Shown here: positions 3,101 through 21,039 of the stretch, piece after piece
How positions within the stretch are numbered: the stretch's first letter is position 1
How the letters are laid out: every line of letters begins with the position of its first letter
Assembly: GCA_963796685.1 (NCBI GenBank)
Contig: CAWCMR010000016.1
Coordinates: 1-62,918, forward strand
Direction: 5' to 3'
Length of the DNA stretch: 62,918 nt
Source: an uncultured delta proteobacterium
Lineage (GTDB): Bacteria; Myxococcota_A; Polyangia; Fen-1088
Position numbers and translations under genes: made by a program
Notes under the pieces: model-generated
Databases searched by the model: none
The model's input: only the letters and a program-made list of their open reading frames with translations
Told to the model about the DNA's origin: nothing

Positions 3101-3688
3101 ATTGGCCGACTATCGCTGTTCGGCCCGGGCGCCACCAGGCTGCACGAAGAAATGATCCTGGTCGCCGCCCACTGGCTCGACAATCGGGCCGACGGCCGCC
3201 TCAAACCGTTCGCCGAGGAGGCCGACCGCAAGGCCATCGCCGATCTGGAACGCCTTCTCGCCGAGGCCCCCCAGCAGCCCGAGATCAGCGACACCGTCCA
3301 GCGCCGCCTGCAGCAGGCCGCGTCCGCGGATTTCAGCGATCTTTGGCAGCACATCCAGGCCGAAGGCGAGAGCCGCGAGCACGACGCCGCCGAGAAGCTA
3401 CGCCTCCGAGCCCGCACCGAGTCCGACGCCCTGAAGAAGATCCTCACCGACCAGCGCGACGCCATCAAACAGACCCTGCAAGGGCAACAACTTTCCTTCG
3501 GCTTCACCGAGGCTGACAAGATCCAGCGCATCCAATTCGAGCAAGACCGCAAGCACATGAGCGCCCGCCTCGATCAGATCGACCGCGAGATCCAAACCGA
3601 GCCCCGAGAAATCGAAGCGCTCTACCAGGTCGTCCTCAGGCGTCTTGAACCCGTCGGCCTCGTTTACCTGTGGCCCGCAACGAGATGA
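182..3688 (+). CDS. drmD: DISARM SNF2-like helicase DrmD, with N-terminal SAP-like extension
   Basis: SF2/SNF2 motifs ADDVGLGKTIEAG, DEAH, LSATPHNG, TDAAREGVNLQ, PWNPARLEQRNGRVDR; directly upstream of an adenine MTase and in the same locus as drmABC. Confidence 0.9.
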   Translation: MADVSKRSVLSVLIKGRLEDLGRNFGVSVPTTGTKDAQVAVLADSPLDLPSILGRLRRDELRSACRAHGLDATGRGRGDLMARLAGPGLATGAREGEPAWQRLHQADGLPREGQIVQVRHRQYLVTGVTTPELGEDRSGQTLVSLVCLDDDAAGRRLEVLWERELGARVFTPEERGLGDRLDPPRQFAAYLHALKWGCVTATDARLFQAPFRAGVKVLDHQMVPLRKALELPRVNLFLADDVGLGKTIEAGLILQELILRQRVDQALIICPAALALQWRAEMEKRFGIRFEIYNRDFVVRRREERGFGVNPWTTFPRFIISYQTLRRPEYREPLLRHLDQRAPKSLLIMDEAHTAAPASASKYAVDSNVTHVVREVAPKFEHRLFLSATPHNGHSNSFSSLLEILDPQRFTRGVPVSGPKQLEPVMVRRLKGELRELGIEGYPLRRVIQIDLTHGPGGWQQRHIVDGRGTAPGAVGEGSDAEIELSALLAQYSSLLKQKNRRSRLVIANLQKRLLSSIEAFARTLAVHAKSVGTRADKATATGPTPDDSEYGEDEATSDERFDAQMFMFSGALAAPSTDARALLERMTGLAEQNRRAPGPKVLALLDWIRRNQCPAVQLGGAARARVPAPWTDRRVIVFTEYADTKRYLATILRAAFDGTADGDLRLMEFHGGMSDRQREEVQRAFNGPPEQYPVRILLATDAAREGVNLQGYCADIFHFDVPWNPARLEQRNGRVDRTLQREKEVRCHYFVYPQRAEDHVLQVLIEKVERIRRDLGTLGEVVAERLAEVLEEGIGPNTEARLDEAERIDDLKTSATRDLESVHAVQKAREDIDLVANILNDSRKVMDYEPGLLREAIDVGLGLGGGASLIPTATPHTFNLPELGDTWQTTLDAFRPPRERDESFDEWRKHPLRPVTFVSPEHLTDEVVQLHLQHPFVQRVLSRFRAQGWAAHDLGRVTVLRNQRDSLVRVIGIGRLSLFGPGATRLHEEMILVAAHWLDNRADGRLKPFAEEADRKAIADLERLLAEAPQQPEISDTVQRRLQQAASADFSDLWQHIQAEGESREHDAAEKLRLRARTESDALKKILTDQRDAIKQTLQGQQLSFGFTEADKIQRIQFEQDRKHMSARLDQIDREIQTEPREIEALYQVVLRRLEPVGLVYLWPATR

Positions 3689-3691
3689 CCC

Positions 3692-6600
3692 ATGTCCGAC
3701 ATCGAGATTGATTTTCACAAGACCTGGCTCGGCTTCGTTCAGCCGGTCGAGGGCCTGGTTTTCTCGATCCCGGTCCTGCTCGACGCCGGTTGCATGGAGC
3801 GCAAGCCCGTCGCCCTCCAGCAACGCCTGCGCGAGCTCGCCCCCGCCGTCAGCGACGACCCCGGCGCCGCCCGCCAGCTCGCCGACCTCGACCGATTTCT
3901 CACCGACATCCTCGACCTGCCCCCCGACCTCTTCGACCGCGCCGACGCCCTTCCCCCCGACCTATCCCTCTACGTCCCCGAAGGCCGCCAAGACCTCCGC
4001 CCCACCCTCGCCCTGCGAAAGCAGCCCCAAACCGAATCCCCCGACCAAGGGTCCCCTCGCCCCGCAAGCGAAGCGCAGCGGGGAGAGGGACAGGGTGAGG
4101 GGGATCTCCTCCCCGACGACACCACCCCCGCCAGCCGCGCCGGTGCCGCCTACGAAATGCTCATCTGGTCCCTCCCCCCCGGTCTCGACCTCGACAAGCC
4201 CGAGATCGCCACCGGCCCCTGGGAATACGCGCCCGCGGCCAAGCTCGATCGCCTCCTGCGCGCCACTCGCGTGCCCATCGGGCTGCTGACCAACCATCAA
4301 TGCCTCCGCCTCATCTACGCCCCGCACGGCGAGGCGACCGGCTCCATCACCTTCTCGCTCGCCACCATGGCCGACGCCGGCGGGCGGCCAGTGCTCGACG
4401 CCTTCGCTACCCTGCTCTCCGCCGGCCGATTCTTTGCCGTTTCCCCCGAACGCCAGCTTCCCCAGATCCTGCGCGACAGCCGCCGCCGCCAGGCCAACGT
4501 CACCAACCAGCTTGCCGACCAGGTCCGCCAGGCCCTGGAATTCCTACTGCGCGGTTTCGAGTCCGCCGCCGACCGCGACAAAACCGGCACCCTCGACGAG
4601 GCCCTGGCCCGCGACGACGACCACGTCTACGGCGGCCTACTGACCGTCCTTCTGCGCCTGGTGTTTCTCCTCTACGCCGAGGATCGCGAGCTTCTGCCCA
4701 TCGGCGACAGCCGCTATTCCCGCCACTATTCGGTGCTGGGCTTGTTCGAGCAGTTGCAAGACGACCACGCCAACTTCCCCGACACCATGGTGCGCCGGTT
4801 CGGCGCCTGGCCGCGCCTGCTGGCCCTGTTCCGCATCGTGTTCGAAGGCGCGCAGCACGGACCCCTGGTCTTGCCCGCCCGCCGCGGCGACCTGTTCGAC
4901 CCCGCCCGCTACCCCTTCCTGGAAGGCTGGCCCGCGACCGGCGGCGCCCCCGTCGACACCGTGGCCCGCGCCAGCGTGCAGGTGCCCAGCGTCGACGACG
5001 AATCGATCTACCGCGTGCTCGAGAAGCTGCTCTACCTCGACCACCAGCGCCTGTCCTATCGCGCCCTCGACGTCGAGCAGATCGGCAGCGTGTACGAGGC
5101 CCTGATGGGCTTCCACGTCGTGCGCGTCCCCTCGCGCGCGGTGTGCGTGCGCGGCCCGCGCGTCTGGGTGCCTGTGACCGACCTGCTGGAAGTCGCGCCC
5201 GATCGCCGCGCCGCCTGGCTGGAGGACGAGGCCGGCGTCGAAAAGAGCGCCCTCAAGAAGGCCGGCGCCGACATCAAGGCCGCCAAGACCGAGGACGAGC
5301 TGCATCGCCGCCCTGCAAACCATCCAGGCCCGCGACACCGAGGTGGCGCGCCCGCTGCAAATCGTCCTGCAACCCGGTGTCGAGCGCCGCCGCACCAGCT
5401 CGCACTACACCCCGCGCTCGCTGTCCGAGCCCATCGTGCGGCGAACCCTAGAGCCGCTCATCGGCGCCATGACTCAAGTAGACGGCACCCCTCCCTCCGA
5501 GCGCCTACTCGACCTCAAGATCTGCGACCCGGCCATGGGCTCGGGCGCGTTCCTGGTGGCCGCTTGCCGCTTCTTGGCCGACCAGGTGGTGGCCGCGTGG
5601 ACGCGCGAGGGCCGCATGGAGGCCGTTGCCTCCGCCACCGAGGACGTCGTGACGCAAGCCCGCCGCCTGGTCGCCCAGCGCTGCCTGTACGGCGTAGACA
5701 AGAACCCCTTCGCCGTCAGTCTGGCCAAGCTGTCCCTGTGGCTGGTGACCCTGGCCAAGGACGAGCCCTTCACCTTCGTCGACCACGCCCTTCGCCACGG
5801 CGACTCGCTGGTCGGCCTGTCGCTCGATCAAATCCGAGCCTTCCACTGGAAACCCGAAAGCCAGCTTGAGCTGGTGGGCAAAGAGATCGAGACCGCCATC
5901 GACGAGGCCCTGGCCCTGCGCCTACGCATTCTCGACTTGGCACGCGACCACGGCAGCGCCATCACACGCGAGAAAGAGCGCCTGCTCTGGGACGCCGAGG
6001 ACGCCCTCGACCGCGTGCGCGTGATCGCGGATCTGGTCGTGGGCGCGTTCTTCGTCGCGGACGGCGACAAGGCCCGACAGGCCGAGCGCAACCGCCGTAT
6101 GGATCTCGTCACCACCTGGCTGCGCGATGGTGGCCCCGTTCCCGCCGAGCTGCGCGACCTGTGCGACGAGCTTCGCCAAGATGGCGAGGGACGCAAGGGC
6201 CTCCCGCCCTTTCACTGGATGATCGAATACCCCGAGGTCTTCTACGGTGAGCGCCCCGATCCCCTGGACAAGGATCACGTGAATCGAGCGGCGTGGATGG
6301 ATGCGTTTGTGGGGAATCCACCGTTTGCCGGCAAGAACGGCATCAGTGCCGCTGGCGGCGATGCGTACCTTCCCTGGCTACAACAGATCCACCCAGGCAG
6401 CCACGGCAACGCCGACCTCTGCGCGCACTTCTTCCGCCGCGCCGACTTCCTGTTAGGCGAGCACGGCACTATCGGCCTCATTGCCACGAACACCATTGCT
6501 CAGGGCGATACCCGCAGCACCGGCTTGCAGAACATAGTCAACGGCGGTAGCGCCATCTACGACGCCGTCCGCAGTATGAAATGGCCTGGTGAGGCCAACG

Positions 6601-7778
6601 TCTCCGTATCCGTTGTCCACATGGCCAAGGGCCACCTGGCCAGTGTCTCCGGTTTGCGGCGGCGGCTGGACGGGATCGAGGTCGCGGCGATCAACTCGCG
6701 CCTGCGGCCCAAGCCCGAGCGACCTGACCCGCATCCTCTCGCCGAGAACGCGGGCCTGAGCTTTGTCGGGAGCTACGTCCTTGGAATGGGCTTCATCCTT
6801 ACGCCCGATGAGCGGGACGCACTGATTCGCAAGAACAAGCGCAATGCCGAGCGGATCTTTCTTTACGTCGGTGGCGAGGATCTAAATACCAGTCCAACGC
6901 TGTCCAGTGATCGGTACGTGATCAACTTTGGCGACCTGCCGCTGGCGGAGGCAGAGAAGTGGCCGGACCTGGTCGCAATTCTGCGACAAAAAGTCAAACC
7001 GGAACGGGACAGGAACAACCGGAAGGCATATCGAGACTACTGGTGGCATTTCGGAGAAAAACGGCCGGAACTCTACGAAACGCTCAAGGGCAGAACGCGG
7101 TGCCTGGTAACATCGGGCATCAGCAAGCATCGCATTTTCGCGTTGTCGCCGACGGACCGAATCTTTAGCCACAACGTCTACGTTTTCCCGCTGGATGCGA
7201 ACACGCATTTCGCGGTTCTCCAGTCGCGCGCGCACATTGCGTGGACATCTCTTCTAGCTTCCGGGTTAGAGGACCGAGGTGGCTACCGTCCTTCCGACTG
7301 CTTCGACACCTTCCCATTCCCCGCCGCCGAGACCCTGACCCCCACCGGCGACCTCGAAGCCATCGGCACCCGTCTCTACGAAACCCGCGCCCACCTGATG
7401 GTCGAGCGCAACCAGGGCCTGACGACCAGCTACAACCAGCTCAAAGACCCCGCCTGCGACGACCCCGAGATCCTCGCCCTCCGCCGCCTCCACGAAGACC
7501 TCGACCGGGCAGTCCTCGCCGCCTACCACTGGTCCGACATCCCCGTCCCCCCATTCGAAACACCCACCACCCCCGCAGCCCGCACCGCCCAAGAATCCTT
7601 CGAAGACGAAATTATAGACCGCCTCTTCGCCCTCAACGCCGACCGGGCAGAAAAGGAACGTCTGCAAGGCGCCGGGGTTCGGCCCGCCTCAAAGTCTCGC
7701 AAATCGTCGAAAGCCCACGGAGGCGATGTACAGCTCAGTTTCGATTCGGAGCCGACGAGCAGGAAGGGCAAGCGATGA
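3692..7778 (+). CDS. drmMI: DISARM class I N6-adenine DNA methyltransferase DrmMI (Type IIG/MmeI-like architecture); +1 frameshift near 5303
   Basis: ORF 3692 joins ORF 5343-7778 if one base is removed at ~5303 (..EDEL-IAALQTIQARDTEVARPL..); IGSVYEAL, HYTPRSL, DPAMGSGAFL (motif I), GNPPF (motif IV), C-terminal target-recognition region. Confidence 0.85.
4053..4103. repeat. REP-like palindromic element inserted in frame inside drmMI
   Basis: cccctcgccccgc..gcggggagaggg..gggtgagggg; reverse complement resembles the intergenic copy at 41239-41295; translated as part of GSPRPASEAQRGEGQGEG. Confidence 0.65.
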
Positions 7779-9154
7779 CCTCCCTCGAAGAAGCCCGTCA
7801 AGCACTCGACCGCGCGGTGGAGGAAATCCGGTCGATCGAGATACCCGATCCCAAGAATCACCGACTTGTCGAGAGAGCAGCAAGAGCGGCTTTCGGTGGG
7901 GTATGCCGACTGATCGCTCTGATCCAGAAGAACCTCCACCTGGCTCGCGCGGCCGAGGAGTCGTCCTCTGACTACCGTCGGGAGGAGGCCCGTCTTCATG
8001 CGGAGGAGCGAAGCGCGCTGCTGCGACTGCGAAGGATCAGGAACGCGATTGTCGCCAAGTGCCAGAGTCTGGATCCATCGGTGCAAGTCACGGACCAGAC
8101 CGACGGCTCCAAGCTGGTCTCTGGGTTTGACGAATTCCTCGAAAAGGGGCTGAAGAAGCTGGGGCAGGATGATTCCTTTTTTTCGAGCGGCAAGCACAAG
8201 GCAACCGAACGACTATGGAATGTACTGGATTATGTAGACGAACATGAACCCCGGCTTGATCGCTGGAAGGAGGGGTGCCGAGCCAGCTCGATGAACCTGG
8301 GGCAGCTTCGTCGCGCTCGACATGTTCTGGACGAGAGCAGCCCCGGCAAGAGGTGGCTGCGGCTTGTCGACGTACCGGTCGCGGCCAACCCTCCCGAAGG
8401 TCCCCAGTTATGGCTGAGCGAATCCAACAGCTGGGAACCTCCGGCGCTGGGTCCGCTCTACAAGCTGGTCCACCACCAGCGATTCCTTGACGAGCCAGAG
8501 TGCAGGAGGGCTTGCGATTGGCTGTCGGACTTGCGAACGAGCCTGCATGCCGTTGCAAGCGACTTCCATGCCCGGCTTGGTCGGCGAGCGTCCATCGCCT
8601 GGATCCTGGAACGTTACGCGCGCCGTTGCCGACGCCTTCGGCGAAACGAATTGAGAGAGATGCTGGAGGAGCTTGCGCCGACCGAGAAACGAGAGCTTGC
8701 ACTGACCCGCGATGCAGCCGTGTTCCTGTTCGACCATGGCTTCGAGGTGCTGACCGAGCAATCTGAGGGAACTCACCGCTATGACATCATTGGAGATCAG
8801 CTTCTTGTCGAAGCTAAGATCTACGATGGCAGGCGTCGCGGTCTGGCTGCCGTCGCGGAAGGGCTATCACAAATCCACCAGTACGCGAACACGCTGGCCG
8901 ACGGAGGAGTACACGTCGAGCCGGTTCTTCTCGTCTTCCGCCTTGGCGGCCCGCGCGCGACGCCAGTGTTGGAGTACAAGATCGGTAACCTCCCCGTAAC
9001 CATCGCTCACGTCGATCTGGGAACAAGCGTCGATAGCGGCAGCAATTCGCCACCACCAGAACCCGACATCACCGAGGCGATCATCGCAGCCAAACTTGCA
9101 CGCATGACGAGTGCTCCTGGAAGAAGAACCAAGAAGGGACATCGAGGCGGGTAG
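7775..9154 (+). CDS. Hypothetical protein with helical N-terminus and C-terminal PD-(D/E)xK restriction-endonuclease-like domain
   Basis: ATG at 7775 overlaps the drmMI stop (ATGA); C-terminal E..(RYD)..LLVEAK..GLSQIHQY fits PD-(D/E)xK plus QxxxY. Confidence 0.65.
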   Translation: MTSLEEARQALDRAVEEIRSIEIPDPKNHRLVERAARAAFGGVCRLIALIQKNLHLARAAEESSSDYRREEARLHAEERSALLRLRRIRNAIVAKCQSLDPSVQVTDQTDGSKLVSGFDEFLEKGLKKLGQDDSFFSSGKHKATERLWNVLDYVDEHEPRLDRWKEGCRASSMNLGQLRRARHVLDESSPGKRWLRLVDVPVAANPPEGPQLWLSESNSWEPPALGPLYKLVHHQRFLDEPECRRACDWLSDLRTSLHAVASDFHARLGRRASIAWILERYARRCRRLRRNELREMLEELAPTEKRELALTRDAAVFLFDHGFEVLTEQSEGTHRYDIIGDQLLVEAKIYDGRRRGLAAVAEGLSQIHQYANTLADGGVHVEPVLLVFRLGGPRATPVLEYKIGNLPVTIAHVDLGTSVDSGSNSPPPEPDITEAIIAAKLARMTSAPGRRTKKGHRGG

Positions 9155-9157
9155 ATC

Positions 9158-9889
9158 ATGGGTACGCTGTTTTCCACCGACATACCAATCGTTCAGGACC
9201 TGACCGATCACGGCGATGTTCCGGTCGTGCACACCGGCTGTGCGGTCTACAGCATCGACAGCGCAGGTAGGCGCTGGGTCCGCAAGCGCGAATCAAACAC
9301 CGGCGTCGAGGAGCTCCTCGCCGAGATGATCGGCTGGCTGCTGGCGCGCAGGTTGCTCGTTCCGGTTCCCGAGGCTGGCGTGTTTGTTGTCGGGAATGAT
9401 CGGTCATGGCTCAGCGCCGAGATTCAAGATGTCCTGCACTGGGATTCGTCGCGGGCTCCCTTCGTGACCAACATGGCCGGGCTGGGTGCCATGATGGCCC
9501 TCGATACGATGATCCTGAATGAGGACCGGCATGCGGGAAACATCCTGCTTCAGCCTTTCCCGGACCAACTTCACCTGAAGGTATGGGCGGTCGACCACGG
9601 AAGCGCCTTGGTAGGTTGGCCGAGCGACTACGTGGCGCGGCGGGGGCAAATCCCTGATCCGCGAAACCTTGCGCCCGGGCTGCCGATGGATCTTGTGCAG
9701 GACGGCGCCATGGAAGCGGCGGAAAAGGCGACTTACCTGGTCTTGCAGGACATACTTGCTCTCGTAAGGGAGGCTTGCACCAACGCCGCGGAGCAGAAGA
9801 TTGACGAAATCGTAAGCGTTTTGGCAGAGCGCTGCGCGAATGCCAGGGCACTTGTCGAGAGCTACCTCAAGCGTATAAGAGGGGGCTGA
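9158..9889 (+). CDS. HipA-like (HipA_2-type) kinase
   Basis: WVRK, LLAEMIGWLLARRLLVPVP, LDTMILNEDRHAGNILL catalytic loop, VDHG metal-binding motif; 243 aa. Confidence 0.8.
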   Translation: MGTLFSTDIPIVQDLTDHGDVPVVHTGCAVYSIDSAGRRWVRKRESNTGVEELLAEMIGWLLARRLLVPVPEAGVFVVGNDRSWLSAEIQDVLHWDSSRAPFVTNMAGLGAMMALDTMILNEDRHAGNILLQPFPDQLHLKVWAVDHGSALVGWPSDYVARRGQIPDPRNLAPGLPMDLVQDGAMEAAEKATYLVLQDILALVREACTNAAEQKIDEIVSVLAERCANARALVESYLKRIRGG

Positions 9890-9891
9890 CC

Positions 9892-10734
9892 ATGATCGCG
9901 AGATACCGAGTTGTCCATTTCGTGCCCGACCCGTTCACCGGGGCGCGAATTCCGCTGGCCGCCATCGTGGCCGGGGGCGGTGGTGTGTCGATAGCGTCAG
10001 CCGGTCACGTTCCCGGGGCCGTGTGCCTGGGCCGACCTTCAACCTATGCGGCGATGCAAATGGTTCTCGAGTCGCTTTCCGCCGTCGAGAGTCTCGATGT
10101 CCTGCCGGTGGCGATCGGCCCCCATGCGGTGCTCGATGTTGAGCGCCAGATTCCCGGTGACGTCGCGGATCCCGTGCGATGGGTCGTCGAGAATGTGCTA
10201 CCGCGAACCGACGAGGCGCAGCCTGCTCGTGCCGCCAAGAGCCATCATCGAGACACGCAAGGGTTCCGCCTTTTTGAAACCTGGAAGGTTTCGCAGTACG
10301 TACATCAGCGATTTCAGCCGGACGAGCATTGGGCAGGCATGCGGGTAGGCGTGCCGCGGAAGCTCGGGTCCATATCGCACTGGGTTGGTGCTTCCAAGGT
10401 GGGCATTCTCCTCATGGAGCCGCTGATCCCGACTCGATCAGGATTCCAACGGGAGCTCGTCGAGGTGTACCAGCGGTTCGCCGGCTATCGTGCCTTTCTC
10501 GACCGGGGCGGCGCACCCGAGGAGGCGAAGCAGCACACCAAGCTATGTGTCTACGTCCTTCCTGGCGGGAAATCAGGGGACCGCAGTAGCGCCCTCGGCG
10601 CGTTCGCCGACGTCGAAGCTGTTACGATCGATACCGAAAGCGATTCAGCCCAAAGATCGTTCGTCGAGGAGATCCGAGCCCTGGGCCGCGCGGCCGAGCC
10701 GCAGACCGACCTATCGGATCCGCAGACGAACTAG
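9892..10734 (+). CDS. DUF3037-like partner of the HipA-like kinase
   Basis: N-terminal YRVVHFVPDPFTGARIPLAAIV resembles the DUF3037 motif; starts 2 nt after the kinase stop, the usual gene order for this pair. Confidence 0.6.
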   Translation: MIARYRVVHFVPDPFTGARIPLAAIVAGGGGVSIASAGHVPGAVCLGRPSTYAAMQMVLESLSAVESLDVLPVAIGPHAVLDVERQIPGDVADPVRWVVENVLPRTDEAQPARAAKSHHRDTQGFRLFETWKVSQYVHQRFQPDEHWAGMRVGVPRKLGSISHWVGASKVGILLMEPLIPTRSGFQRELVEVYQRFAGYRAFLDRGGAPEEAKQHTKLCVYVLPGGKSGDRSSALGAFADVEAVTIDTESDSAQRSFVEEIRALGRAAEPQTDLSDPQTN

Positions 10735-10741
10735 AGACGGG

Positions 10742-11056
10742 CTACCGTCTCGCTGCCTTCTTGCTTGCCCGAGGCCGGACGACGAGCGCCCCGCTCGAAT
10801 CCACGGATCCGCCACGGGCGAGCTTTCCCGCCACGGCACCGATTGACAGCCTGCGACTTCGATTCGCTAGCTCGCCCAGCGTCGTTACCTCGACATGGTT
10901 TCGGTTTAACCTGCCCTGTTCATCAATGAGACCGATCTTGACCAGCCGCTGGAAGCCCTTGAGCGGTGGGACCTTCTTCGCCTTCGCGAGCGCGCGCAGG
11001 CTCTGCCGCACAATGCGGTCCACTGGATCGGCCGATGCCACCGAAGCTCTGATCAT
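10742..11056 (-). CDS. Small basic protein, candidate antitoxin
   Basis: 104 aa with LVKIGLIDEQGRL motif, immediately downstream of the ART-like gene on the same strand. Confidence 0.45.
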   Translation of the reverse strand: MIRASVASADPVDRIVRQSLRALAKAKKVPPLKGFQRLVKIGLIDEQGRLNRNHVEVTTLGELANRSRRLSIGAVAGKLARGGSVDSSGALVVRPRASKKAARR

Positions 11057-11102
11057 GGCTTCAGCGTACCTCTCGCGCGCGAGGATTGCCAGGGTCCAGG
11101 CG

Positions 11103-11687
11103 TCATGGCTCGCCCCGTGGCTTGAACAGTCCGCAAATGGCCCCGGGTCGTCTCACCGCAAGCTGAATATGTGTCTCCCGACGGATGAGGGCCTCCGGGA
11201 AAGCAGGGGCGCCCTCTTCGAAGGCTCCGCGGACGATACTGTACCGCTCGCGTAGACCTGGATCGCTCAACAGCGAGTTGATGACGAGGCAGTCAAGGTG
11301 GTGCCGCTTGCGTTCGGACTTCTCATTGCCGGGAAGCTGCGAGCCGGCGGCGGCATATTGCGCCGCGAGCACTCGATGGGCCTGCCCCAGCATCTCGGTA
11401 AACCTGACATCGGTAAGGTCCAGAACGTCGTTCCCAAGAAGGATGATCGCGCCGACCACTGCGGGCCTCGCCCTTCTCCCTTTGGCCGTCGCCCTCCTTG
11501 CCCGGTCCTCAGCCCACCGTCTTGCCCGGCCGGGACCATGTTCCCAAAAGTAGATGCCCTCACCAAGCCAATCCCACGCGTTCTTACTGACCGGCCAGTC
11601 CTCGACGGACCTGCGTCCGGTCAGCAAATCGGAGGCCAAAGGCTCCAGGCACCCATGGTATCCGACAACGACTCGGGGAAAGTTCAT
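11103..11687 (-). CDS. ADP-ribosyltransferase-fold (DUF3990-like) putative toxin
   Basis: GYHG, DWLGEGIYFWE, LDCLVIN and THIQLAV motifs match the H-Y-[E/Q] ART pattern; 194 aa. Confidence 0.65.
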   Translation of the reverse strand: MNFPRVVVGYHGCLEPLASDLLTGRRSVEDWPVSKNAWDWLGEGIYFWEHGPGRARRWAEDRARRATAKGRRARPAVVGAIILLGNDVLDLTDVRFTEMLGQAHRVLAAQYAAAGSQLPGNEKSERKRHHLDCLVINSLLSDPGLRERYSIVRGAFEEGAPAFPEALIRRETHIQLAVRRPGAICGLFKPRGEP

Positions 11688-11761
11688 CGCAGAACCGAAC
11701 GATACGCCGTCTGACGGTCCGATTGCCAGTTTCGCGAGACTGCGTCGAGCAGGTAGGCCAT
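11684..11761 (-). pseudogene. Stub of a DUF4411-like PIN-domain gene (MAYLLDA...)
   Basis: ATG directly follows the ImmA stop (TAG ATG); encodes MAYLLDAVSRNWQSDRQTAYRSVLR*; its TGA overlaps the ART-like ATG. Confidence 0.55.
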
Positions 11762-12904
11762 CTACGCGACACCGAGGTTCTGGCCCAGCTTGTGGAGTGT
11801 CTCGACCTTCGAGATCCCAAGCATGCGCATGGCATCGCGGAACAGGGTCTGACCCTCCAGCGTGTTGGACAACAACGCGCGCGTGAAGCGCTTACTCGTT
11901 CGCGCCGCTTGGGTCAGGTAGAAGTTGCCTCCGCCCCCTTTCTCGCGCGCGAGCAGCCGGCTCAACTCCGCCTCGAATGCGTCGAAAAAGGCCGCCTTGC
12001 TCAGAACTCGAGCATCACGGAGCCGGCGAATGACGACCAGCGTGCTGACCTTGAACCTTCTGGCCAGGCGGGTGGTCTCGCCGTCCAACGGGACCTTGGG
12101 CTGGTGCTCGGCTCGGAGAGCCGCCAGCGGTACCAAAAGCTCGGCCGCGACTTGGTTGCACCAGCGCTCAGTCTCGCGGTCCGGCACGTCTCGCACCGTG
12201 GCGTCCGAGACGCCGGACTGGCCAATCCACAGGTGCGCCAGCTCGTGCGCGAGCGTGAACATCTGAGCTGCCTTGGTGTCGGCGCCGTTGATGAAGACCA
12301 GCGGGGCCATCGGGTCAGAGAGCGCGAAGCCCCGGAACTCGTCGGGATCGAGCTTCCGACTGTTGTTGTTCAACACCACGCCGCTGCACATGACCATCAC
12401 ACCAGCCATCTCGGTTTGGCCGATGAAGTCACGGAGAGCGTCAGTCCAGGTTGGGCAAGCGGCGCGGGCAGCGAGGTCAAAGCCCAGCGTTTGCCGCATC
12501 GACTCGGCGACGGCCACGACGTCGTGCTTGACGGTGACGGAACCGACAAAGGCGCTTGGCGCGACCCCGGCTGTGATGGCGAAGTCCCGGTACCAGCTCT
12601 GACGTTCCTGGCAGATGTAGATGGTCTCAAGCAGATTCGGACTGGGTCGGGCCGGCGGCTGGTCACCGATGGTACGGAAGTCCGGCAGCGGCAGCGTATC
12701 GACAGGCGGCTCGGGTAGAAAGAAGTATCCGACCGGCGTCAACGTCGCCTTCGCCAGGGCTTCCAACTGCTTCAGCGTCGGCTGGGCGGTGCCGCTCTCC
12801 CAGTCGGGCAGCTTCGCGAAGCGCTCCGTGAGCGCGGCCAGGGGTATCCCGGCGCGATCACGCGCCCAGCGAAACAAGGCAGGGCTAACCTCGGCGCGAA
12901 GCAT
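11762..12904 (-). CDS. Xre-HTH plus ImmA/IrrE (M78) metallopeptidase
   Basis: N-terminal HTH (RWARDRAG..WESGTAQPTLKQLE), FRGFAL, FTLAHELAHLW HExxH, ERWCNQVAAELLVP; likely start ATG 12904. Confidence 0.88.
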   Translation of the reverse strand: MLRAEVSPALFRWARDRAGIPLAALTERFAKLPDWESGTAQPTLKQLEALAKATLTPVGYFFLPEPPVDTLPLPDFRTIGDQPPARPSPNLLETIYICQERQSWYRDFAITAGVAPSAFVGSVTVKHDVVAVAESMRQTLGFDLAARAACPTWTDALRDFIGQTEMAGVMVMCSGVVLNNNSRKLDPDEFRGFALSDPMAPLVFINGADTKAAQMFTLAHELAHLWIGQSGVSDATVRDVPDRETERWCNQVAAELLVPLAALRAEHQPKVPLDGETTRLARRFKVSTLVVIRRLRDARVLSKAAFFDAFEAELSRLLAREKGGGGNFYLTQAARTSKRFTRALLSNTLEGQTLFRDAMRMLGISKVETLHKLGQNLGVA

Positions 12905-12989
12905 GGGACAGACAGATAGTATCCTGGCGGGGGACACGGAAGCCAGAAGTCGGCTACCCGCGCGGTAGCCATTCCAGTAGAATGTCCTT

Positions 12990-13679
12990 ATGCGGCGGAA
13001 ATTCCTTGGCGACGCTCTCGACTTTTGGAAGGGATCGATGCTGAGAGCGATGGGCCCCGGCACGCCCCTTCGCGTGGCAGCGATGATTCCAGACCACGAA
13101 CCCTGGACGGATGAGGAAAAGGCGACCTATGCAGACTTGTTGGGTCTGCATGTGGACGATGTCGAGTTCAACCAGTTCACGACCGAGCAGCGGAAAATCT
13201 ACTTCTTGCGTCTTCGCCTGGCGAACCAGGACGCAGACTTTTTCCTGGACCCCGACACGGGGCTAGCTACGTCGAAGAAAGAGAAGAAGGCTGACCACCA
13301 GCACGCCAGCCCAGCCGAGGTGAGGAGGCTCCTGGCCGATGGGAACGTTGTGGCCATCTACCAGCACAGCCGCCACGAAAAGGCCTGGCTCCTGAAATCC
13401 GCCGAACCTTTCCGCGATGTCCATGTCGTTGGCTGCGAATGCACCCACGCCGGGATGCTATTCGTCACTCGAAGCCGAAATCGGGCGTTGAAGGTGCGCG
13501 ACGCGCTTGCCGACAGATTGGGTGCGGCAAGAATGAGGGTGTGGCTGCTCGGCCCCAGGCTGAAAGCGTTCGTTCGCGAGGCCATTGAGAGTGAACAGAT
13601 TACGCTCGGCCGAGGCGCGGAGATCTTGGGCCTCGACCTGTCGGAGATGCGGAAACTGACGGCATCTTGGGTCCGATAG
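12990..13679 (+). CDS. Hypothetical protein (GD..D..K / FLDPDTGL / YQH family) with ImmA-type C-terminal HTH tail
   Basis: 229-aa ORF; family-like motifs FLGDALDFWKG, FFLDPDTGL, IYQH; ends in EQITLGRGAEILGLDLSEMRKLTASWV. Confidence 0.55.
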   Translation: MRRKFLGDALDFWKGSMLRAMGPGTPLRVAAMIPDHEPWTDEEKATYADLLGLHVDDVEFNQFTTEQRKIYFLRLRLANQDADFFLDPDTGLATSKKEKKADHQHASPAEVRRLLADGNVVAIYQHSRHEKAWLLKSAEPFRDVHVVGCECTHAGMLFVTRSRNRALKVRDALADRLGAARMRVWLLGPRLKAFVREAIESEQITLGRGAEILGLDLSEMRKLTASWVR

Positions 13680-14918: not shown

Positions 14919-15045
14919 GCCACCTGTTTTCGACGAGTCAATCTCCTTTGTGGGCGCCCCTGACCTCTACGACCATGGAACCGCCGGATATCGCGGTTGA
15001 CAACGAAGAGACCCGCGACAGGACTTGGCGTATCATCGTCGCAAA

Positions 15046-18000
15046 ATGGCAGCGTCTCAGCCCGTCGAAGTCCGCCAGCACTTGATCGCAGCGCTCCGGG
15101 CCGATCTCGTCGGGCCGTTTCTCCCCGAAGCCAGCGACGGCTCCCGCTCCGAGGAAGTGCTGCCCGTACCACCTTCCCGCTGGTACCTGTGCGGCTTTCT
15201 CGCGCCAGAGCAAGGGCGAGAGCCCGAGGTTCAGGTCGAGGAGGGCGAGCTTGGCGAGGGTGACGACGACGAGGAGGCCAGCGCCAGCGCGGATCCCGAG
15301 CCCAAGCGAAAAAGCCTTCTCCCGGCATCACTTGGCATGTCGGTCTTCATTCCCGACGGGAATGCTAGGGATGTCATCACCGCCCGGGTGACCTTCGCCG
15401 ACTACGAGGCAGTTGATGGTCCTGAGAGCGGCGAGGGATCCGCGCGTGCTCGAAAGTGGTATTGGCGGCGACTGCCTCGCGGCCCTGTCGAGGTTGACGT
15501 TCCCGTCGATCCCAAGATTCTAGCCAACGGTGTCCCACTGCTAGGCTTCCCAGAACTGGTTCTGACCGGCGTCGTCGAGAAGGTCGCGGCTCCATGCTTT
15601 TCGAACGGTGCGAGGGCGCTGTCCTTGTTTCTGGTCAACCGGCGCCAACCTGCACCGCAGGGTCGAGAGGATGAGGCGTACATCTTCCAGGTCGAGCTGG
15701 AAATCGCGAACGTGAAGGGGTTCATCCCAAGGCCGAATCTGAGGGGCGAGAGCGCGGACGACATTGATGAACGGGTAGCGGATTTGCAGTTCAGGAACCA
15801 GTTCGAGTACGTGGTTGGGCACGGCATCGCGGCCGAGCCGGTCGAGAAGGGAGGCCACGTGGTTGCCGTCAGGTCTACCTGGCTGCCCACCGCGACCGTG
15901 ACGAGGGTGAAGACCCGGGACGACATCAAGGACGTGACCGTCGCCATGGAGGATCTGGCTGCCCTTCCAGACGCCACCACTGCGCGGCTGAAGTTGGCGC
16001 CATTACTCGCGCACTATGCCGGCTGGATAAAGGACCAAAGGGCGACCTCGTTGGATACCGACGGGCGTCGAGAGACCCTACAGGCGCTCGTGCTCAAGGC
16101 CGAGCGTGCTCGCAAGCGAATCGATGCGGGAATTGACCTTCTGGCACGGGATCCGCTGGCCTTCGATGCGTTCAGGATTGCGAACCAAGCCATGGCCGAT
16201 GCGGCCTACCGGCGCAGCCCGGATCGCTACACGGATGGCAGGAAGCCCGAATGGCGTCTATTCCAGTTGGCGTTTGTGTTGCTCTCGTTGCCCGGACTGG
16301 CCGACGAGACGCATGAAGACCGCGAAACGGTCGAGCTCATCTTCTTCCCGACGGGCGGCGGCAAGACCGAGGCATACCTCGGGGTGATCGCGTTCAACTT
16401 GGTCCTGCGCCGGCTGCGCGGCCAGGGGCGGCCAGACGGCGGGCTTGGTACCTCGGTTCTCCTGCGCTACACGCTTCGGCTGCTGACGCTTGACCAACTT
16501 GGCCGCGCTGCGACCCTGATCTGTGCTCTGGAGTTGATTCGCAAGGCGGATGCTCGGCTTGGCAAGGTGCGATTCTCCCTCGGTCTGTGGGTTGGCAAGT
16601 CCGCTACGGCGAACACGCTCGAGGATGTCGCCAAGCGCATCACGGAATATCGAAACAGCAATTCGCCGGTGGCGCAGTCGCCGTTTCCGTTGCCCGCCTG
16701 CCCGTGGTGCGGAAGACCGCTTGGCAAGGACAGCCTGGAGCTCAAGCCCAACAAGACGCGCCCGCAAGAGGTTTTGATTGGCTGCTCGGACTTTCGCTGT
16801 GACTTCGCGGCGTCGAAGAATCGCGAGGGGCTGCCTGTCTTGTTCGTCGACGAGCAGATCTATCGCGAGCTGCCATCCTTCGTCGTCGCCACCGTCGACA
16901 AATTCGCCATGCTGCCCTGGCGCGGTGAAACGGGCGCCTTCTTCGGCCGCGTCCACTCGCGAGACGGTCGTCGCTTCTTTGGCCCGATGGACGGCGCGGT
17001 GCCGCCACCACAGTCCGAGAAACTGCCCGAGGGACTACTGCCGCCGGATTTGATCGTGCAAGACGAGCTCCATCTCATCTCGGGACCGCTCGGCACGATG
17101 GTTGGGCTTTACGAGACCGCCATCGAGGGCTTGTGCATGCGTACGCGCCCGGACGGCAGCAAGGTCAGGCCCAAGATCATTGCATCCACGGCCACGGTGC
17201 GCCGGGCAGAGAGCCAGATCCAGGCCCTGTTCGGGCGGGCCGGCGTGGACGTGTTCCCACCGAACGGCGTGGACCAATCCGAATCCTTCTTTGCCACCGT
17301 GGATACCGAAAACCCAGGGCGTGAGTATCTGGGCGTCGCGGCTCCTGGCCGTGCGGTGAAGGCGATCTTGTTGCGGGTGTACGCGGCGCTGTTGGGAGCA
17401 TCCCAGCGCCACTTCGATCCCAAGGGCGAGGGCGAACAGGCAGCCGACCCGTACATGACCGTGGTGGGGTATTTCAACAGCTTGCGCGAGCTTGGTGGGA
17501 TGCGCCGCCTGGTCGAGGACGAGGTTCTGCGGCGCTGCCAGAAGATCGAGGAGCGCCGACCCGAGGACTTCAAGGGACCGCACCCATGGGTGGCCAATCG
17601 CGATATCAGGCCTGAACCCGTCGAGCTGACCAGCCGCGAGAGCACCTATATGATCAGCAAGGCCAAGGAGCTGCTTGGCCGCCACCACACCGACGATGAG
17701 CACGTCGACGTGGCCCTGGCCAGCAACATGATCTCGGTGGGCGTGGACATCGAGCGCCTGGGACTGATGGTCGTGGCTGGCCAGCCCAAGACGACCAGCG
17801 AGTACATCCAGGCGTCGAGCCGCGTGGGCCGCGATGTGAAGCGGCCGGGCCTGGTCGTCACGGTCATGAACGTGCACCGGCCGCGCGACCGTTCCCACTA
17901 CGAGCGCTTTCGCACCTACCACGAGAGCTTCTATCGATTCGTCGAGGCGACCAGCGTGACGCCATTCTCGGGGCCGGCCATCGATCGCGGCCTTTGCGGG

Positions 18001-18450
18001 ACGTTGGTGGCCTTGGTCCGATTGGGTACGCCGGCACTGACGCCGCCCACGGCGGTCAGGATGCTCGAGGCCGTACGGGAGACTGCTGGCAATGCTGCGG
18101 TGGCGGCCATCGCCGACAAGGCGCGAAGCCAGCCACGCCGAGGTGACGCCGCGGATGGAGACCGGCTGGGTGATGAGATCCATGGACGTTGTAAGCACCT
18201 GCTGGACACCTGGCAGAAGATCGTGCGCAGGTCGGCCGAGGCAGGAGGCGAACGGGTGTATTCGGCCTATGACGTTGATTGCAGGAACGACAAGGCTCTC
18301 TTGCACACGATCCTGGACGCGGATCCGGCGTTCATGGCCGAGGGCGAAGAGGATTTCTCGGCAGCCACGTCCATGCGCGATGTCGAGCCATCGGTACATT
18401 TCTGGATCGAGCGACAGCGCCTCGGGACGAAGGGACCAACCCATGGCTAA
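15046..18450 (+). CDS. drmA: DISARM helicase DrmA
   Basis: WRLFQLAF, FPTGGGKTEAY, RYTLRLLTLDQ, QDELHLISGPLG, ASTATVR, SNMISVGVDIERLGLM, YIQASSRVGR, RPRDRSHYERF. Confidence 0.93.
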   Translation: MAASQPVEVRQHLIAALRADLVGPFLPEASDGSRSEEVLPVPPSRWYLCGFLAPEQGREPEVQVEEGELGEGDDDEEASASADPEPKRKSLLPASLGMSVFIPDGNARDVITARVTFADYEAVDGPESGEGSARARKWYWRRLPRGPVEVDVPVDPKILANGVPLLGFPELVLTGVVEKVAAPCFSNGARALSLFLVNRRQPAPQGREDEAYIFQVELEIANVKGFIPRPNLRGESADDIDERVADLQFRNQFEYVVGHGIAAEPVEKGGHVVAVRSTWLPTATVTRVKTRDDIKDVTVAMEDLAALPDATTARLKLAPLLAHYAGWIKDQRATSLDTDGRRETLQALVLKAERARKRIDAGIDLLARDPLAFDAFRIANQAMADAAYRRSPDRYTDGRKPEWRLFQLAFVLLSLPGLADETHEDRETVELIFFPTGGGKTEAYLGVIAFNLVLRRLRGQGRPDGGLGTSVLLRYTLRLLTLDQLGRAATLICALELIRKADARLGKVRFSLGLWVGKSATANTLEDVAKRITEYRNSNSPVAQSPFPLPACPWCGRPLGKDSLELKPNKTRPQEVLIGCSDFRCDFAASKNREGLPVLFVDEQIYRELPSFVVATVDKFAMLPWRGETGAFFGRVHSRDGRRFFGPMDGAVPPPQSEKLPEGLLPPDLIVQDELHLISGPLGTMVGLYETAIEGLCMRTRPDGSKVRPKIIASTATVRRAESQIQALFGRAGVDVFPPNGVDQSESFFATVDTENPGREYLGVAAPGRAVKAILLRVYAALLGASQRHFDPKGEGEQAADPYMTVVGYFNSLRELGGMRRLVEDEVLRRCQKIEERRPEDFKGPHPWVANRDIRPEPVELTSRESTYMISKAKELLGRHHTDDEHVDVALASNMISVGVDIERLGLMVVAGQPKTTSEYIQASSRVGRDVKRPGLVVTVMNVHRPRDRSHYERFRTYHESFYRFVEATSVTPFSGPAIDRGLCGTLVALVRLGTPALTPPTAVRMLEAVRETAGNAAVAAIADKARSQPRRGDAADGDRLGDEIHGRCKHLLDTWQKIVRRSAEAGGERVYSAYDVDCRNDKALLHTILDADPAFMAEGEEDFSAATSMRDVEPSVHFWIERQRLGTKGPTHG

Positions 18451-20287
18451 CAAGTGGCGCGGCGGCGCCTACAACCCGCACCTCGAACCTGACGGGAAGG
18501 TTCGGCAGAGCCAGGCGGCATCCACCTTTGGCCCCGGCGCGATGATTGACCTGGTTCACGATGCGGTCGTCATCGGCGGGCTGGATTTCTGGCGCTACGA
18601 CGACAAACCGGGACGAGCGATCTCCGAGCCGCGCCTACGCGATGCCATCGCCAGTCGCCTTGAGCAGCAGGGTCGCACGATCCGTGATGAGGATTCGTTC
18701 CGGTTGCCGCCACTAGGCGACGACCATGAACCGCGTCGGAACTGCGGCATCGAAGTGTTGGAATTTCCCAGGTGGTTCGTCTGTCAGAACCGGGACTGCC
18801 GAGCGCTGGTTCAAAGCGGTGAATTGGTTCGTAAGAGCGACAAGTACATCCATTCGTGCGACGGACGCGAGAGCTCCCCTTGCGTACCCGTGCGCTTCGT
18901 GATGGCCTGCAAAAATGGCCACCTGGAAGAATTCCCCTGGACCGATTTCGTCCATGGACGGCAGGGCCGCCCACGCTGCCCGTCACCATCGCTGCGGCTG
19001 CACGAAGGCGGCACCGGTGACTTTTCCGAAGTCGAGGTCCGCTGTGCCTGTGGCGCCAGCAGGCCCGTGTCGAAGGCACTGGTTCCGCAGGCGAATCCGA
19101 TGTGCAGCGGCCAACGCCCGTGGTTGGGACGCGAGGGACAAGAGCCGTGCGGAGAGAGCCTACGGCTTCTCGTGCGCACCGCCAGCAACAGCTATTTCCC
19201 GCAGGTGGTCAGTGCTCTGTCGATCCCCGAGCCCGAGCAAGAGCTCCACGATGCGGTTCGCGAGAACTGGAGCACCTTGCAGATAACCAACGAAGCGACG
19301 CTCTCGGTCCTTCGCCAGATCCCGAAGATCCAGTTCGCGTTCGAGGGGCGCGGCGATGCCGAGATCCTCAAGACCATCGACGATATTCGCCAGGGCAAGC
19401 AGCCACAACGGGACGCCCTTCGCACGGCGGAGTTCAAGCAGTTTGCGGGGTCGCTTATTGAGCGGACGGGGGACCTACCGCCGCCCAAGGGCCACTACTT
19501 CTTCGCGCGAACCTTCAAGCCTGCAAGCGGACTGCCGGTTGGCATCAGCAGACTGGTTCTCGCGCATCGCCTACGTGAGGTTCGCGTCCAGGTGGGCCTC
19601 ACCCGACTGGAGTCCGCCACTCCCGATCTGCAAGGCGAGTACGATCTGGGCGTGACCACCGCGCCGCTCGGACTGCAGACCGACTGGCTTCCAGCGACGG
19701 AGGTGCGCGGCGAAGGCATCTTCATCGAGCTGGATGAGGCGGCAGTTCAGCGCTGGGAAGACCGGCCCTCGGTACTCGAGCGAAGCCGCGAGCTGTACGA
19801 GGGTTTCCAACAGTGGCCCGATGGCAGCAAAGTCGACTTTCCCGGCGCACGCTTCTACCTGCTGCATTCCTTGTCTCACTTGCTGATGACGGCACTGTCC
19901 GTCGAATGCGGATATGGAGCCAGCGCGCTGACGGAGCGGATCTACTGCGCGCCAGCCACCGATCCGACGCCGATGGCCGCGATCCTGATCAGCACGGGCA
20001 GCACCGGCACGGAAGGCACCCTCGGTGGTCTGGTCGAACAGGGCCGCCACCTACGCGCGCACCTGCAGCGGGCCTTCGACATGGGGAAGCTTTGCTCGAA
20101 CGATCCGGTCTGCGCCAGCCACAAGCCATCCAGCTTGACCGAGCGCTATCTGGAAGGTGCCGCCTGTCACGGCTGTCTTTTCGTCGCCGAGTGCTCATGC
20201 GAGCGTTTCAACAAATACCTCGACCGCGCGTTGGTCGTGCCCGCGCTCGGACATGATGGGGTGGCTTTCTTCCCCGAGCGCCCATGA
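18443..20287 (+). CDS. drmB: DISARM DUF1998 protein DrmB
   Basis: ATG 18443 overlaps drmA end; RQSQ..TFGPGAMIDL, VRFVMACKNGHLEEFPW, LLHSLSHLL, GTLGGL, CSNDPVC..GAACHGC. Confidence 0.93.
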   Translation: MANKWRGGAYNPHLEPDGKVRQSQAASTFGPGAMIDLVHDAVVIGGLDFWRYDDKPGRAISEPRLRDAIASRLEQQGRTIRDEDSFRLPPLGDDHEPRRNCGIEVLEFPRWFVCQNRDCRALVQSGELVRKSDKYIHSCDGRESSPCVPVRFVMACKNGHLEEFPWTDFVHGRQGRPRCPSPSLRLHEGGTGDFSEVEVRCACGASRPVSKALVPQANPMCSGQRPWLGREGQEPCGESLRLLVRTASNSYFPQVVSALSIPEPEQELHDAVRENWSTLQITNEATLSVLRQIPKIQFAFEGRGDAEILKTIDDIRQGKQPQRDALRTAEFKQFAGSLIERTGDLPPPKGHYFFARTFKPASGLPVGISRLVLAHRLREVRVQVGLTRLESATPDLQGEYDLGVTTAPLGLQTDWLPATEVRGEGIFIELDEAAVQRWEDRPSVLERSRELYEGFQQWPDGSKVDFPGARFYLLHSLSHLLMTALSVECGYGASALTERIYCAPATDPTPMAAILISTGSTGTEGTLGGLVEQGRHLRAHLQRAFDMGKLCSNDPVCASHKPSSLTERYLEGAACHGCLFVAECSCERFNKYLDRALVVPALGHDGVAFFPERP

Positions 20288-21039
20288 CGATGCGCGTGCC
20301 GGGCCTGCTGGATCTGTCCTGCTTGGAGCTGGAGACCATCGCACGTGCCGTACGCCAAGGGATCGTCGCATCCCCACTGACGACAGCCGGCCTTGCCCAA
20401 CTATCGGTCGACGTCCGCGGTAGTTCCCTCGTAGGTCTCGATGGCCGAGCCGTGCTCGCCGTGATCGATGCCGTGTTGGCAGAGCGCCGTCGTCCCGAAG
20501 CAGTCACCGCCGACCTGGTTTGGACGGGGCCCGACGTGGCAGGCAGCACCGCCCGCGACACCGCGGTGGTCGTCCGCGAGCTCTTCTCCCGCGCTCAGCA
20601 TAGCGTCCTGGTGGCGGGCTTCTCATTCGACCACGGTGCCGACATTTTCGAGCCCCTTCACCGCGCGATGAAGGAACGCGCGGTCGAGGCATCCATCTTC
20701 TTGGATCTTCCACGCGCACCTCGCACCGAGGCCGACGTTACCACCCACGCCCGCCGCGAGATCGACGACTTCCTCATCAAGAACTGGCCCTTCGGCTCCC
20801 CCATCCCGCGCCTCTACTACGACCCGCGCACCATCGAGCCCACCTCGACCGCCAGCCTGCACGCCAAGTGCATCGTCGTGGACGATTGCCGCGCCCTCGT
20901 CACGTCCGCCAACTTCACCAGCCGAGGCCAGGAACGCAACGTCGAGGTCGGCGTGCTGGTGGAAAGCGAGAAGTTTGCCCGAGAGCTTGTCCACCAGTGG
21001 CGGAACGCGGCGGAGGCGGGGGTGTTCAAGGGCGTGTAG
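20284..21039 (+). CDS. drmC: DISARM phospholipase-D-family nuclease DrmC
   Basis: LVWTGP, HKD motif LHAKCIVVD, TSANFT..NVEVG; ATGA overlap with drmB. Confidence 0.9.
   Translation: MTMRVPGLLDLSCLELETIARAVRQGIVASPLTTAGLAQLSVDVRGSSLVGLDGRAVLAVIDAVLAERRRPEAVTADLVWTGPDVAGSTARDTAVVVRELFSRAQHSVLVAGFSFDHGADIFEPLHRAMKERAVEASIFLDLPRAPRTEADVTTHARREIDDFLIKNWPFGSPIPRLYYDPRTIEPTSTASLHAKCIVVDDCRALVTSANFTSRGQERNVEVGVLVESEKFARELVHQWRNAAEAGVFKGV

Follow-up and report, generated by a model that had tools for sequence, protein, structure and literature searches.

A Recombination Scar in a DISARM Island Joins an Xre-M78 Gene to a CmdT-like ADP-ribosyltransferase Pair

A contig of 62,918 nucleotides from an uncultured soil delta proteobacterium (assembly GCA_963796685.1, contig CAWCMR010000016.1, positions 1 to 62,918; hereafter the window) carries a class 1 DISARM defense island in which parts of two unrelated modules have been fused at a junction that can be read to the nucleotide. 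The fusion most probably represents an orphaned RosmerTA-like regulator that became joined to an autonomous, chaperone-less CmdTA-like pair in a hotspot of DISARM cargo. The regulator gene (11762–12904, minus strand) is intact and encodes a 380-amino acid Xre helix-turn-helix (HTH) protein with an M78 peptidase domain of the ImmA/IrrE, RmrA-like type and a HELAH zinc motif. Its TAG stop codon abuts, without a gap, the ATG of a chimeric 25-codon open reading frame (ORF; 11684–11761, minus strand; peptide MAYLLDAVSRNWQSDRQTAYRSVLR), the TGA of which overlaps the start codon of the next gene in the sequence ATGA. The latter gene (11103–11687, minus strand) specifies a CmdT-like ADP-ribosyltransferase (ART) toxin candidate of 194 amino acids with the motifs YHG (residues 10–12), GIYFWE (44–49) and HIQ (173–175), and is separated by 46 nt from the gene for a small basic partner of 104 amino acids, the antitoxin candidate (10742–11056, minus strand), whose stop codon lies 7 nt from that of a convergent neighbor. 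The initial annotation of the sequence had described these four ORFs in this order and had placed them inside a DISARM locus; both the layout and the setting, the latter through matches to PADLOC models, were confirmed.

The junction and its parental sequences

The product of the peptidase gene matched the Pfam Peptidase_M78 profile (5.2e-18) and the PADLOC RmrA model (6.8e-18), with a value of only 0.071 for HTH_3, and was collinear over its full length with the homologs at loci L002 and L003 at 84–85% amino acid identity, with the HExxH motif conserved. A scan of species genomes for homologs of the peptidase returned 21 loci, of which 19 were informative once L014 (broken at the start of the locus) and L021 (a 19-residue match) had been left out. 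A full-length DUF4411-like gene was located at −3 to +6 nt from the peptidase stop codon in 12 of the 19 loci, and a degraded DUF4411 gene was present in six, with L009 doubtful. The PIN gene was cut to 109 codons in L001, frameshifted in L010 and L012, and reduced to a faint trace in L011, whereas L007 retained only the first 65 residues and L017 only the last 22. Beyond this set, the PIN gene was frameshifted in genome G432 and absent from G429. Decay of the PIN gene beside peptidases of this subfamily is recurrent and common. In G429 (L109, G429:C15, 35–1362), the peptidase gene lacks its own stop codon as well as the PIN gene, which produces a 397-amino acid ORF. Opposite this ORF are two convergent genes (247 and 200 amino acids) to which no family was assigned.

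The association with DUF4411 agrees with passages of Matelska (2017, PMC5499597) in which DUF4411.1 is located downstream of fused HTH-DUF955 genes. In L002 and L003, which are the closest of the loci, the PIN gene begins with MAYLLDAD, encodes 164 amino acids and matches the complete Pfam DUF4411 profile (5e-52 and 4e-53). At the DNA level, the window is homologous to both loci from 12924 to 11742 (1.16–1.18 kb, 80% identity), and the homology stops 20 nt into the PIN gene. Since the first seven codons of the chimeric ORF, MAYLLDA, form the end of this long alignment, their match to the PIN gene is not due to chance. The remnant of the 5′ end of the PIN gene thus occupies 11742–11761 on the minus strand. 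The 25-residue product of the chimeric ORF had no Pfam match, and only these seven codons are homologous to the DUF4411 PIN family (PF14367, ~160 amino acids, four acidic active-site residues). The assembly to which the window belongs (88.6% complete) yielded no DUF4411 gene; as a positive control, the search was successful in G401 and G402, the genomes of L002 and L003. It had been proposed at the outset that this subfamily normally precedes a DUF4411 PIN gene, that MAYLLDA is the start of such a gene and that the gene was lost after seven codons. All three proposals were upheld: the PIN genes of the closest homologs share the same first 20 nt, and 20–21 nt of the gene remain in the window.

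The second parental sequence was recovered in a metagenome scan with the 194-amino acid protein, which identified 58 loci. One of these, L042, possesses in order drmA, a DUF433 gene, a gene for a 193-amino acid homolog of the toxin candidate (73% identity), a 102-amino acid homolog of the small gene, a convergent second Xre-M78 gene (RmrA 1.3e-33), a 210-amino acid gene upstream of the latter, and a divergent peptidase gene that is 76% identical to that of the window. DNA homology between the window and the L042 cassette begins at 11744 and continues to 10859, and at the protein level reaches residue 95 of the small protein. The stretch from 11688 to 11744 (minus strand) is therefore the native leader of the toxin cassette, 57 nt in length. 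The two tracts of homology meet at 11742–11744, where the trinucleotide CGC fits both parents and constitutes a microhomology of 3 nt.

The joint was bridged by Logan contigs from three studies: X1 record 1 covers 10500–12046 with seven mismatches, X5 record 12 covers 11685–11835 with none, and X7 record 26 covers 11396–11818 with 15. Moreover, the 161 nt around the joint are identical in G404, an independently assembled genome of the same genus. Because contigs from separate studies span the junction and G404 shares it, the junction is not an artefact of assembly. A further contig, X7 record 24 (453 nt, ~93–94% identity), contains a joint between 11167 and 11780. It runs from the 3′ terminus of the peptidase gene through 45 other letters into the final 65 nt of the toxin gene and onward into the beginning of the small gene. 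This single contig may derive from a relative in which the toxin gene was deleted and is regarded solely as a lead.

In L042 the cassette flanks this peptidase gene on its opposite side, at a distance of 2.4 kb. On this evidence the toxin pair may have been relocated within the island, or fused through a deletion, rather than captured from afar. The proposal that the cassette had been captured is accordingly not supported, as the event may have been only a deletion or relocation inside the island.

The ADP-ribosyltransferase family and its conserved partner

An AlphaFold2 model of the 194-amino acid protein was obtained with a mean predicted local distance difference test (pLDDT) score of 95.9. 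Exhaustive structural alignment of the model with the Protein Data Bank (PDB) yielded 35 chains at Z≥5 (7.8–5.1), essentially all of which are ART folds. The top matches were a cyanophage ejectosome protein, tankyrase, diphtheria toxin, NatT, MbcT and poly(ADP-ribose) polymerases (PARPs), accompanied by exotoxin A, ParT, cholix, an Xre-RES toxin and DarT. Z values of 7–8 are middling on the scale of the aligner, and it is the homogeneity of the list of matches that carries the argument. Foldseek returned exotoxin A, NatT and PARPs from the PDB with weak E-values (best 3e-3), and a sequence search of the PDB with the toxin candidate gave chance matches only. Across 75 aligned family members, the residues H11, W40, G42, G44, R54, D132 and E158 do not vary, and Y46, F47, W48, E49, R153, H173 and Q175 are conserved in at least 90%. 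From this conservation and from their placement on the expected strands of the model, H11, Y46 and E158 are a putative catalytic H-Y-E triad. The PADLOC model PD-T4-9_A matched the window protein at 7.3e-5 across residues 6–64 only, and matched 60 of the 75 family members with a best value of 1.8e-9. PD-T4-9_A would correspond to CmdT, judging from the toxin-antitoxin-chaperone gene order in passages of PMC9519451; according to these and to passages of PMC11618068, PD-T4-9 is CmdTAC, and CmdT, an ART of the H-Y-[E,D,Q] type, modifies single-stranded RNA at GA. The predicted structure of the product of 11103–11687 and the match to the CmdT model bear out the suggestion in the initial annotation that the gene is ART-like, and the protein is confidently assigned to the ART fold and is probably a distant relative of CmdT.

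The family is extensive, with 1838 clusters at 50% identity recovered at E≤1e-3 and 790 at 1e-10. Its members are annotated as hypothetical throughout the source records and have no Pfam domain; neither Pfam nor NCBIfam matched the toxin candidate or its small partner. Members occur on 59 plasmid records, including those of Pseudomonas, Rhizobium and many conjugative plasmids, and no homolog was found on the phage records and phage genomes searched.

The small gene downstream of the toxin gene, which had been noted from the sequence as an accompanying basic gene, proved to encode a conserved partner. An iterative profile seeded with the window protein was applied to 78 loci, comprising the window, 19 loci from a phylum sample and the 58 metagenome loci. 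A member of the partner family adjoins the toxin gene in 63 of the 78, downstream on the same strand in 45, downstream and convergent in 17 and upstream in one. Among the 15 loci in which no partner was detected, 11 have <300 nt of downstream flank. On the Rhizobium plasmid pRL8, a 59-amino acid member lies upstream of the toxin gene with an overlap of 4 nt. Persistence of the pairing through these changes in gene order is the hallmark of a functional pair. In some loci (L029, L035, L040, L058) two tandem partner genes follow one toxin gene. The AlphaFold2 model of the partner predicts two N-terminal helices (residues 11–27 and 31–41) with pLDDT values of ~88–91, a conserved G-x-x-x-x-x-G-x-L turn (motif LVKIGLIDEQGRL in the window protein), and a C-terminal tail of low confidence (pLDDT 54–66). 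The partner had no match in Pfam, PADLOC or NCBIfam and no sequence similarity to PD-T4-9_B. In the ESM Atlas, the partner had no usable match, and the 210-amino acid neighbor matched unnamed clusters only. Prediction of the toxin-partner complex from both alignments scored 0.00, which is uninformative either way.

The closest described counterpart is CmdTAC, or PD-T4-9, as portrayed in parts of Vassallo (2022, PMC9519451), Vassallo (2024, PMC11618068) and the Mets (2024) preprint. In both cases the toxin gene comes first, specifies an ART of ~190 amino acids (in the window with a putative H-Y-E triad) and is followed by a small second ORF, and the best Foldseek toxin match for the window protein is domain III of exotoxin A, as is reported for CmdT in the same texts. 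The partner also is modeled with two N-terminal helices and a poorly ordered tail, in keeping with the description of CmdA given there. In contrast to CmdTAC, no scanned neighbor matched SecB or PD-T4-9_C, the gene that follows the pair in the window is convergent, and gene order in the family varies (downstream, convergent or upstream). Furthermore, the window partner has no detectable similarity to PD-T4-9_B, and the likeness to CmdT is distant (E 7e-5) and restricted to the N-terminal third of the protein. DarTG, ParST, MbcTA and Xre-RES/NatRT share the ART fold with the window toxin, but their antitoxins are of the macrodomain, Xre or MbcA type and the window partner is none of these; nor do the Z scores of the window protein single out any one of the ART toxin-antitoxin families.

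Function and fate of the fused genes

The relationship between the peptidase and the ART family was assessed across the loci described above. When the window peptidase was used as a tblastn query, nothing credible was detected in the 19 phylum-sample ART loci (best E 0.088), and L042 alone was matched among the 58 metagenome loci. In none of these 77 other loci did an M78 gene immediately precede a member of the ART family. Pfam searches of 150 flanking ORFs from 27 loci (150 of 180 candidates of at least 150 amino acids within 1.5 kb; 27 of 34 chosen loci) gave no match to Peptidase_M78, and the flanking genes were instead housekeeping genes, resolvases, Fic, HicA, TumE, GmrSD and MmeI-type genes. 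Neutralization of the fused neighbor at 12990–13679 by the surviving peptidase was considered as well, but this peptidase is just 26% identical to the second Xre-M78 peptidase.

The sister genome G404 is collinear with 9242–12301 of the window at 98.1% identity and possesses the same junction. It lacks 12302–12441, a frameshifting deletion of 140 nt that splits the peptidase gene ahead of the HExxH motif (G404:C30 ~9160). The chimeric ORF and small gene of G404 are identical to those of the window, and its toxin is 98.5% identical with three conservative changes; toxin and partner are both intact. A matching deletion joint occurs in run X1 beside the undeleted form, and thus both alleles co-occur in a run with at least two variants of the peptidase region. 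Because G404 tolerates the toxin pair without an intact peptidase gene, the peptidase is excluded as a required antitoxin and is dispensable in this genome. An activator role for the peptidase would be compatible with the G404 evidence. The suggestion that a peptidase-regulated ART module operates inside DISARM is not supported: the pair stands alone elsewhere, and the peptidase gene of G404 is split while toxin and partner are intact. In pairwise comparison with G404, the stretch 9242–12301, which holds the 280-amino acid gene, the small gene, the toxin gene, the junction and the 3′ half of the peptidase gene, differs by <1% and the flanks by 4–7%, which suggests that the central segment was exchanged recently between the two lineages.

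The signals between the peptidase and toxin genes also were inspected. The last 18 codons of the 25-codon ORF are a frame that is open by chance across the leader of the cassette, and in L042 this frame likewise stays open over 25 codons but has no start codon. Fusions were simulated on the 155-nt upstream region of L042 with the cut point and phase varied, and 76 of 465 placed the stop codon of an upstream ORF at −10 to +4 of the toxin ATG. As approximately one in six random fusions produces such an arrangement, the ATGA coupling is weak evidence of selection. The earlier assertion that translational coupling was kept therefore stands in that the overlap is real, but falls short as evidence that it was maintained. 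Given that the +1 frame is open for 25–100 codons in relatives, coupling of the toxin gene to a conserved gene upstream was considered; it was ruled out since the translations are unrelated and of low complexity and L042 has no start codon. The Shine-Dalgarno sequence GAGG is located 8–11 nt before the toxin start in all six closest relatives (L042–L047, of which L044–L046 are near-identical), and TCGG occupies this position in the window and G404. Shine-Dalgarno sequences are absent before many genes of the phylum sample. Upstream of the peptidase gene, an element (GGATACTATC, 12915–12924, minus strand) situated 11–20 nt 5′ of the ATG is kept in the window, L042, L002 and L003, with the aligned form GGGATA[C/G]TATC; it is a candidate −10 region or operator of an Xre-controlled promoter. 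Consensus promoter scans of the window and L042 detected no promoter, and consensus scans for promoters and terminators are uninformative for such a high-GC organism.

In the reading regarded as probable, two unrelated toxin-antitoxin-type modules would have been joined between drmMI and drmA by illegitimate (microhomology) recombination or by deletion. The first would be an Xre-HTH/M78 gene of the RosmerTA-like ‘HTH-DUF955 plus DUF4411 PIN’ type whose PIN gene was reduced to 20 nt, leaving an orphan regulator or antitoxin, and the second a self-contained CmdTA-like pair with its own 57 nt leader, comprising an H-Y-E ART and the small partner cognate to it. Once fused, the pair may be co-transcribed from the Xre-controlled promoter, and ribosomes that re-initiate after the 25-codon ORF may translate the toxin gene, which is devoid of a Shine-Dalgarno sequence. 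The ART would use NAD+ to ADP-ribosylate nucleic acid, by analogy with CmdT possibly single-stranded RNA, which would block translation and lead to abortive infection; the small protein would bind and neutralize the ART as CmdA does, and the peptidase presumably would not be needed to restrain the toxin. Several observations weigh against this reading. The window peptidase gene is intact and has been under past purifying selection (ratio of non-synonymous to synonymous polymorphism ~0.11 versus G404), which leaves room for a retained function; the corresponding substitution ratio for the toxin in the same comparison is uninformative (one synonymous and three non-synonymous changes). The cassette directly adjoins an Xre-M78 gene in both the window and L042, which could mean more than shared ancestry. 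Loss of the Shine-Dalgarno sequence is compatible with coupling and with silencing alike, the scan of the window for consensus sigma-70 promoters was empty so that co-transcription is inferred only, and the sequence likeness to CmdT is confined to the N-terminal ~60 residues.

Functional rewiring into a peptidase-gated ART operon, in which the Xre-M78 protein senses infection and frees the toxin, perhaps through cleavage of the partner tail, or in which its HTH domain represses the operon, is considered rather improbable. The operon-like order with TAG-ATG and ATGA overlaps, the intact peptidase of the window, the loss of GAGG that plausibly made the toxin dependent on upstream translation, the long low-confidence tail of the partner in this subclade, and the convergent Xre-M78 gene that abuts the L042 cassette all fit such an operon, as does the pairing of RosmerTA antitoxins with many toxin types that is documented in portions of PMC10440598. 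However, the pair brings its own partner and occurs elsewhere without M78 genes, the frameshift in the G404 peptidase gene left toxin and partner intact, overlaps of this kind arise in approximately one in six random fusions, and the order M78-ART was not encountered in any of the 77 other loci. The related and broader proposal of a natural ‘warhead swap’ is given similarly little weight: a RosmerTA-type Xre-M78 sensor or regulator would govern a CmdT-like nucleic acid ART via shared transcription, re-initiation after the mini-ORF and perhaps cleavage of the partner tail. Independently of such control, toxin and partner would represent a very large, unannotated, chaperone-less CmdTA-like family. 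It is unlikely that the pair is inert debris, silent after losing its promoter and ribosome-binding site and decaying within a DISARM locus with a frameshifted methylase gene. Only 57 nt of the native leader persist and GAGG is gone, the island bears further scars (the PIN remnant, the fused gene at 12990–13679, the drmMI frameshift and the G404 peptidase deletion), and the X7 contig that joins 11167 to 11780 skips most of the toxin gene. Nevertheless, neither ORF is truncated or lacks any residue that is conserved in its family, the toxin is intact in G404, the changes in P0151, a homolog with 93% identity, cluster in a variable loop, and many genes of the phylum sample do without a Shine-Dalgarno sequence. 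A chimeric join introduced in a metagenome-assembled genome is extremely improbable. The assembly is binned, with 6.5% contamination, and run X1 holds at least two variants of the peptidase region, but the joined sequences share no repeat other than the 3-nt microhomology and the junction recurs in the independent contigs and in the G404 assembly.

The fused regulator invites comparison with RosmerTA (RmrT/RmrA), of the HTH-DUF955(M78) plus DUF4411 PIN type, as presented in parts of the Millman (2022) preprint, Ernits (2023, PMC10440598) and Matelska (2017, PMC5499597). The window gene has the same architecture, with the N-terminal HTH and M78 zinc peptidase domain that define the antitoxins, and matches the RmrA models; the DUF4411 PIN gene that is described directly downstream is found there in its closest homologs. 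A cognate operon toxin neutralized by the peptidase is not evident: unlike in RosmerTA, the native DUF4411 toxin gene amounts to 20 nt, a complete toxin-partner pair of another family now lies downstream, and neutralization by the window peptidase is unsupported given that G404 has the ART with a split peptidase gene. Swapping of toxin partners is a described property of the RosmerTA antitoxin hub in the relevant passages of PMC10440598. A limited literature search (RmrT, RosmerTA, CmdT) found no description of an M78-ART pairing; the supplements on CmdTAC and NetFlax may list related toxin families.

Partner swapping in toxin-antitoxin and defense systems usually is inferred from gene-neighborhood networks. 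The present locus retains such an event at nucleotide resolution, with both parents identified, a 3-nt microhomology joint, and a sister genome that displays the next step, loss of the orphan peptidase, and it therefore offers a concrete view of the reshuffling of DISARM cargo. The locus also counsels caution, as adjacency and overlaps of start and stop codons are no proof of a functional system. The value of the finding resides in a recombination scar that has been preserved and in the exposure of a large toxin-partner family, CmdT-like and with a conserved small partner, that has no chaperone, Pfam model or annotation. As a possible new toxin-antitoxin or abortive infection family that modifies RNA or DNA, it would be a tractable candidate.

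The DISARM island and its shifting cargo

The island comprises drmD (182–3688, plus strand; PADLOC DrmD E=0), drmMI (3692–7778, plus strand; PADLOC DrmMI 4.5e-127 and 1.8e-265), ~7 kb of cargo, and then drmA, drmB and drmC (15025–21039, plus strand; PADLOC DrmA 2.8e-268, DrmB 4.5e-77 and DrmC 4e-65), all five of which are strong matches. The cargo between drmMI and drmA was different in each relative that was examined. The toxin pair of the window and G404 is on the opposite side of the peptidase gene from that of L042, in which the pair and a second module are located between drmA/DUF433 and the peptidase gene. In G429 the peptidase gene is next to DUF433 and drmA, with no PIN gene, toxin pair or second peptidase module. 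Cargo modules in the window have recombined with each other and left a fusion resolved to the nucleotide, which distinguishes them from other defense-island cargo.

The divergent neighbor of the peptidase gene (12990–13679, plus strand) bears a scar of its own. Residues 2–187 of its product are 57% identical to the product of L042 5255–5884, and residues 188–228 are 76% identical to the C-terminus of the product of the RmrA-like gene at L042 4008–5141. From this alignment, the gene is an in-frame fusion of the 210-amino acid gene, whose product belongs to no known family, to the last 41 codons of the second Xre-M78 gene and is the scar of a 1.2-kb deletion. The second Xre-M78 module is intact in L042 (4008–5887, minus strand); therefore, the second RosmerTA-like module of the window lost its peptidase and the first lost its toxin.

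Relative to the single-frame gene of G404, the drmMI gene of the window has one additional G at ~5302 that breaks it into two overlapping ORFs; either the DISARM methylase gene has truly become a pseudogene or the assembly is in error here. The cargo at 7709–9154 and 9158–10734 (plus strand), which is kept in G404, consists of three genes for proteins of 243, 280 and 481 amino acids. The first of these is PI3/PI4-kinase/HipA-like (Pfam 6e-6; PADLOC PDC-M03A 1e-4) and the last has no family. G404 additionally possesses, ~4 kb away, a deleted duplicate of the 280-amino acid gene that retains residues 1–23 and 226–280.

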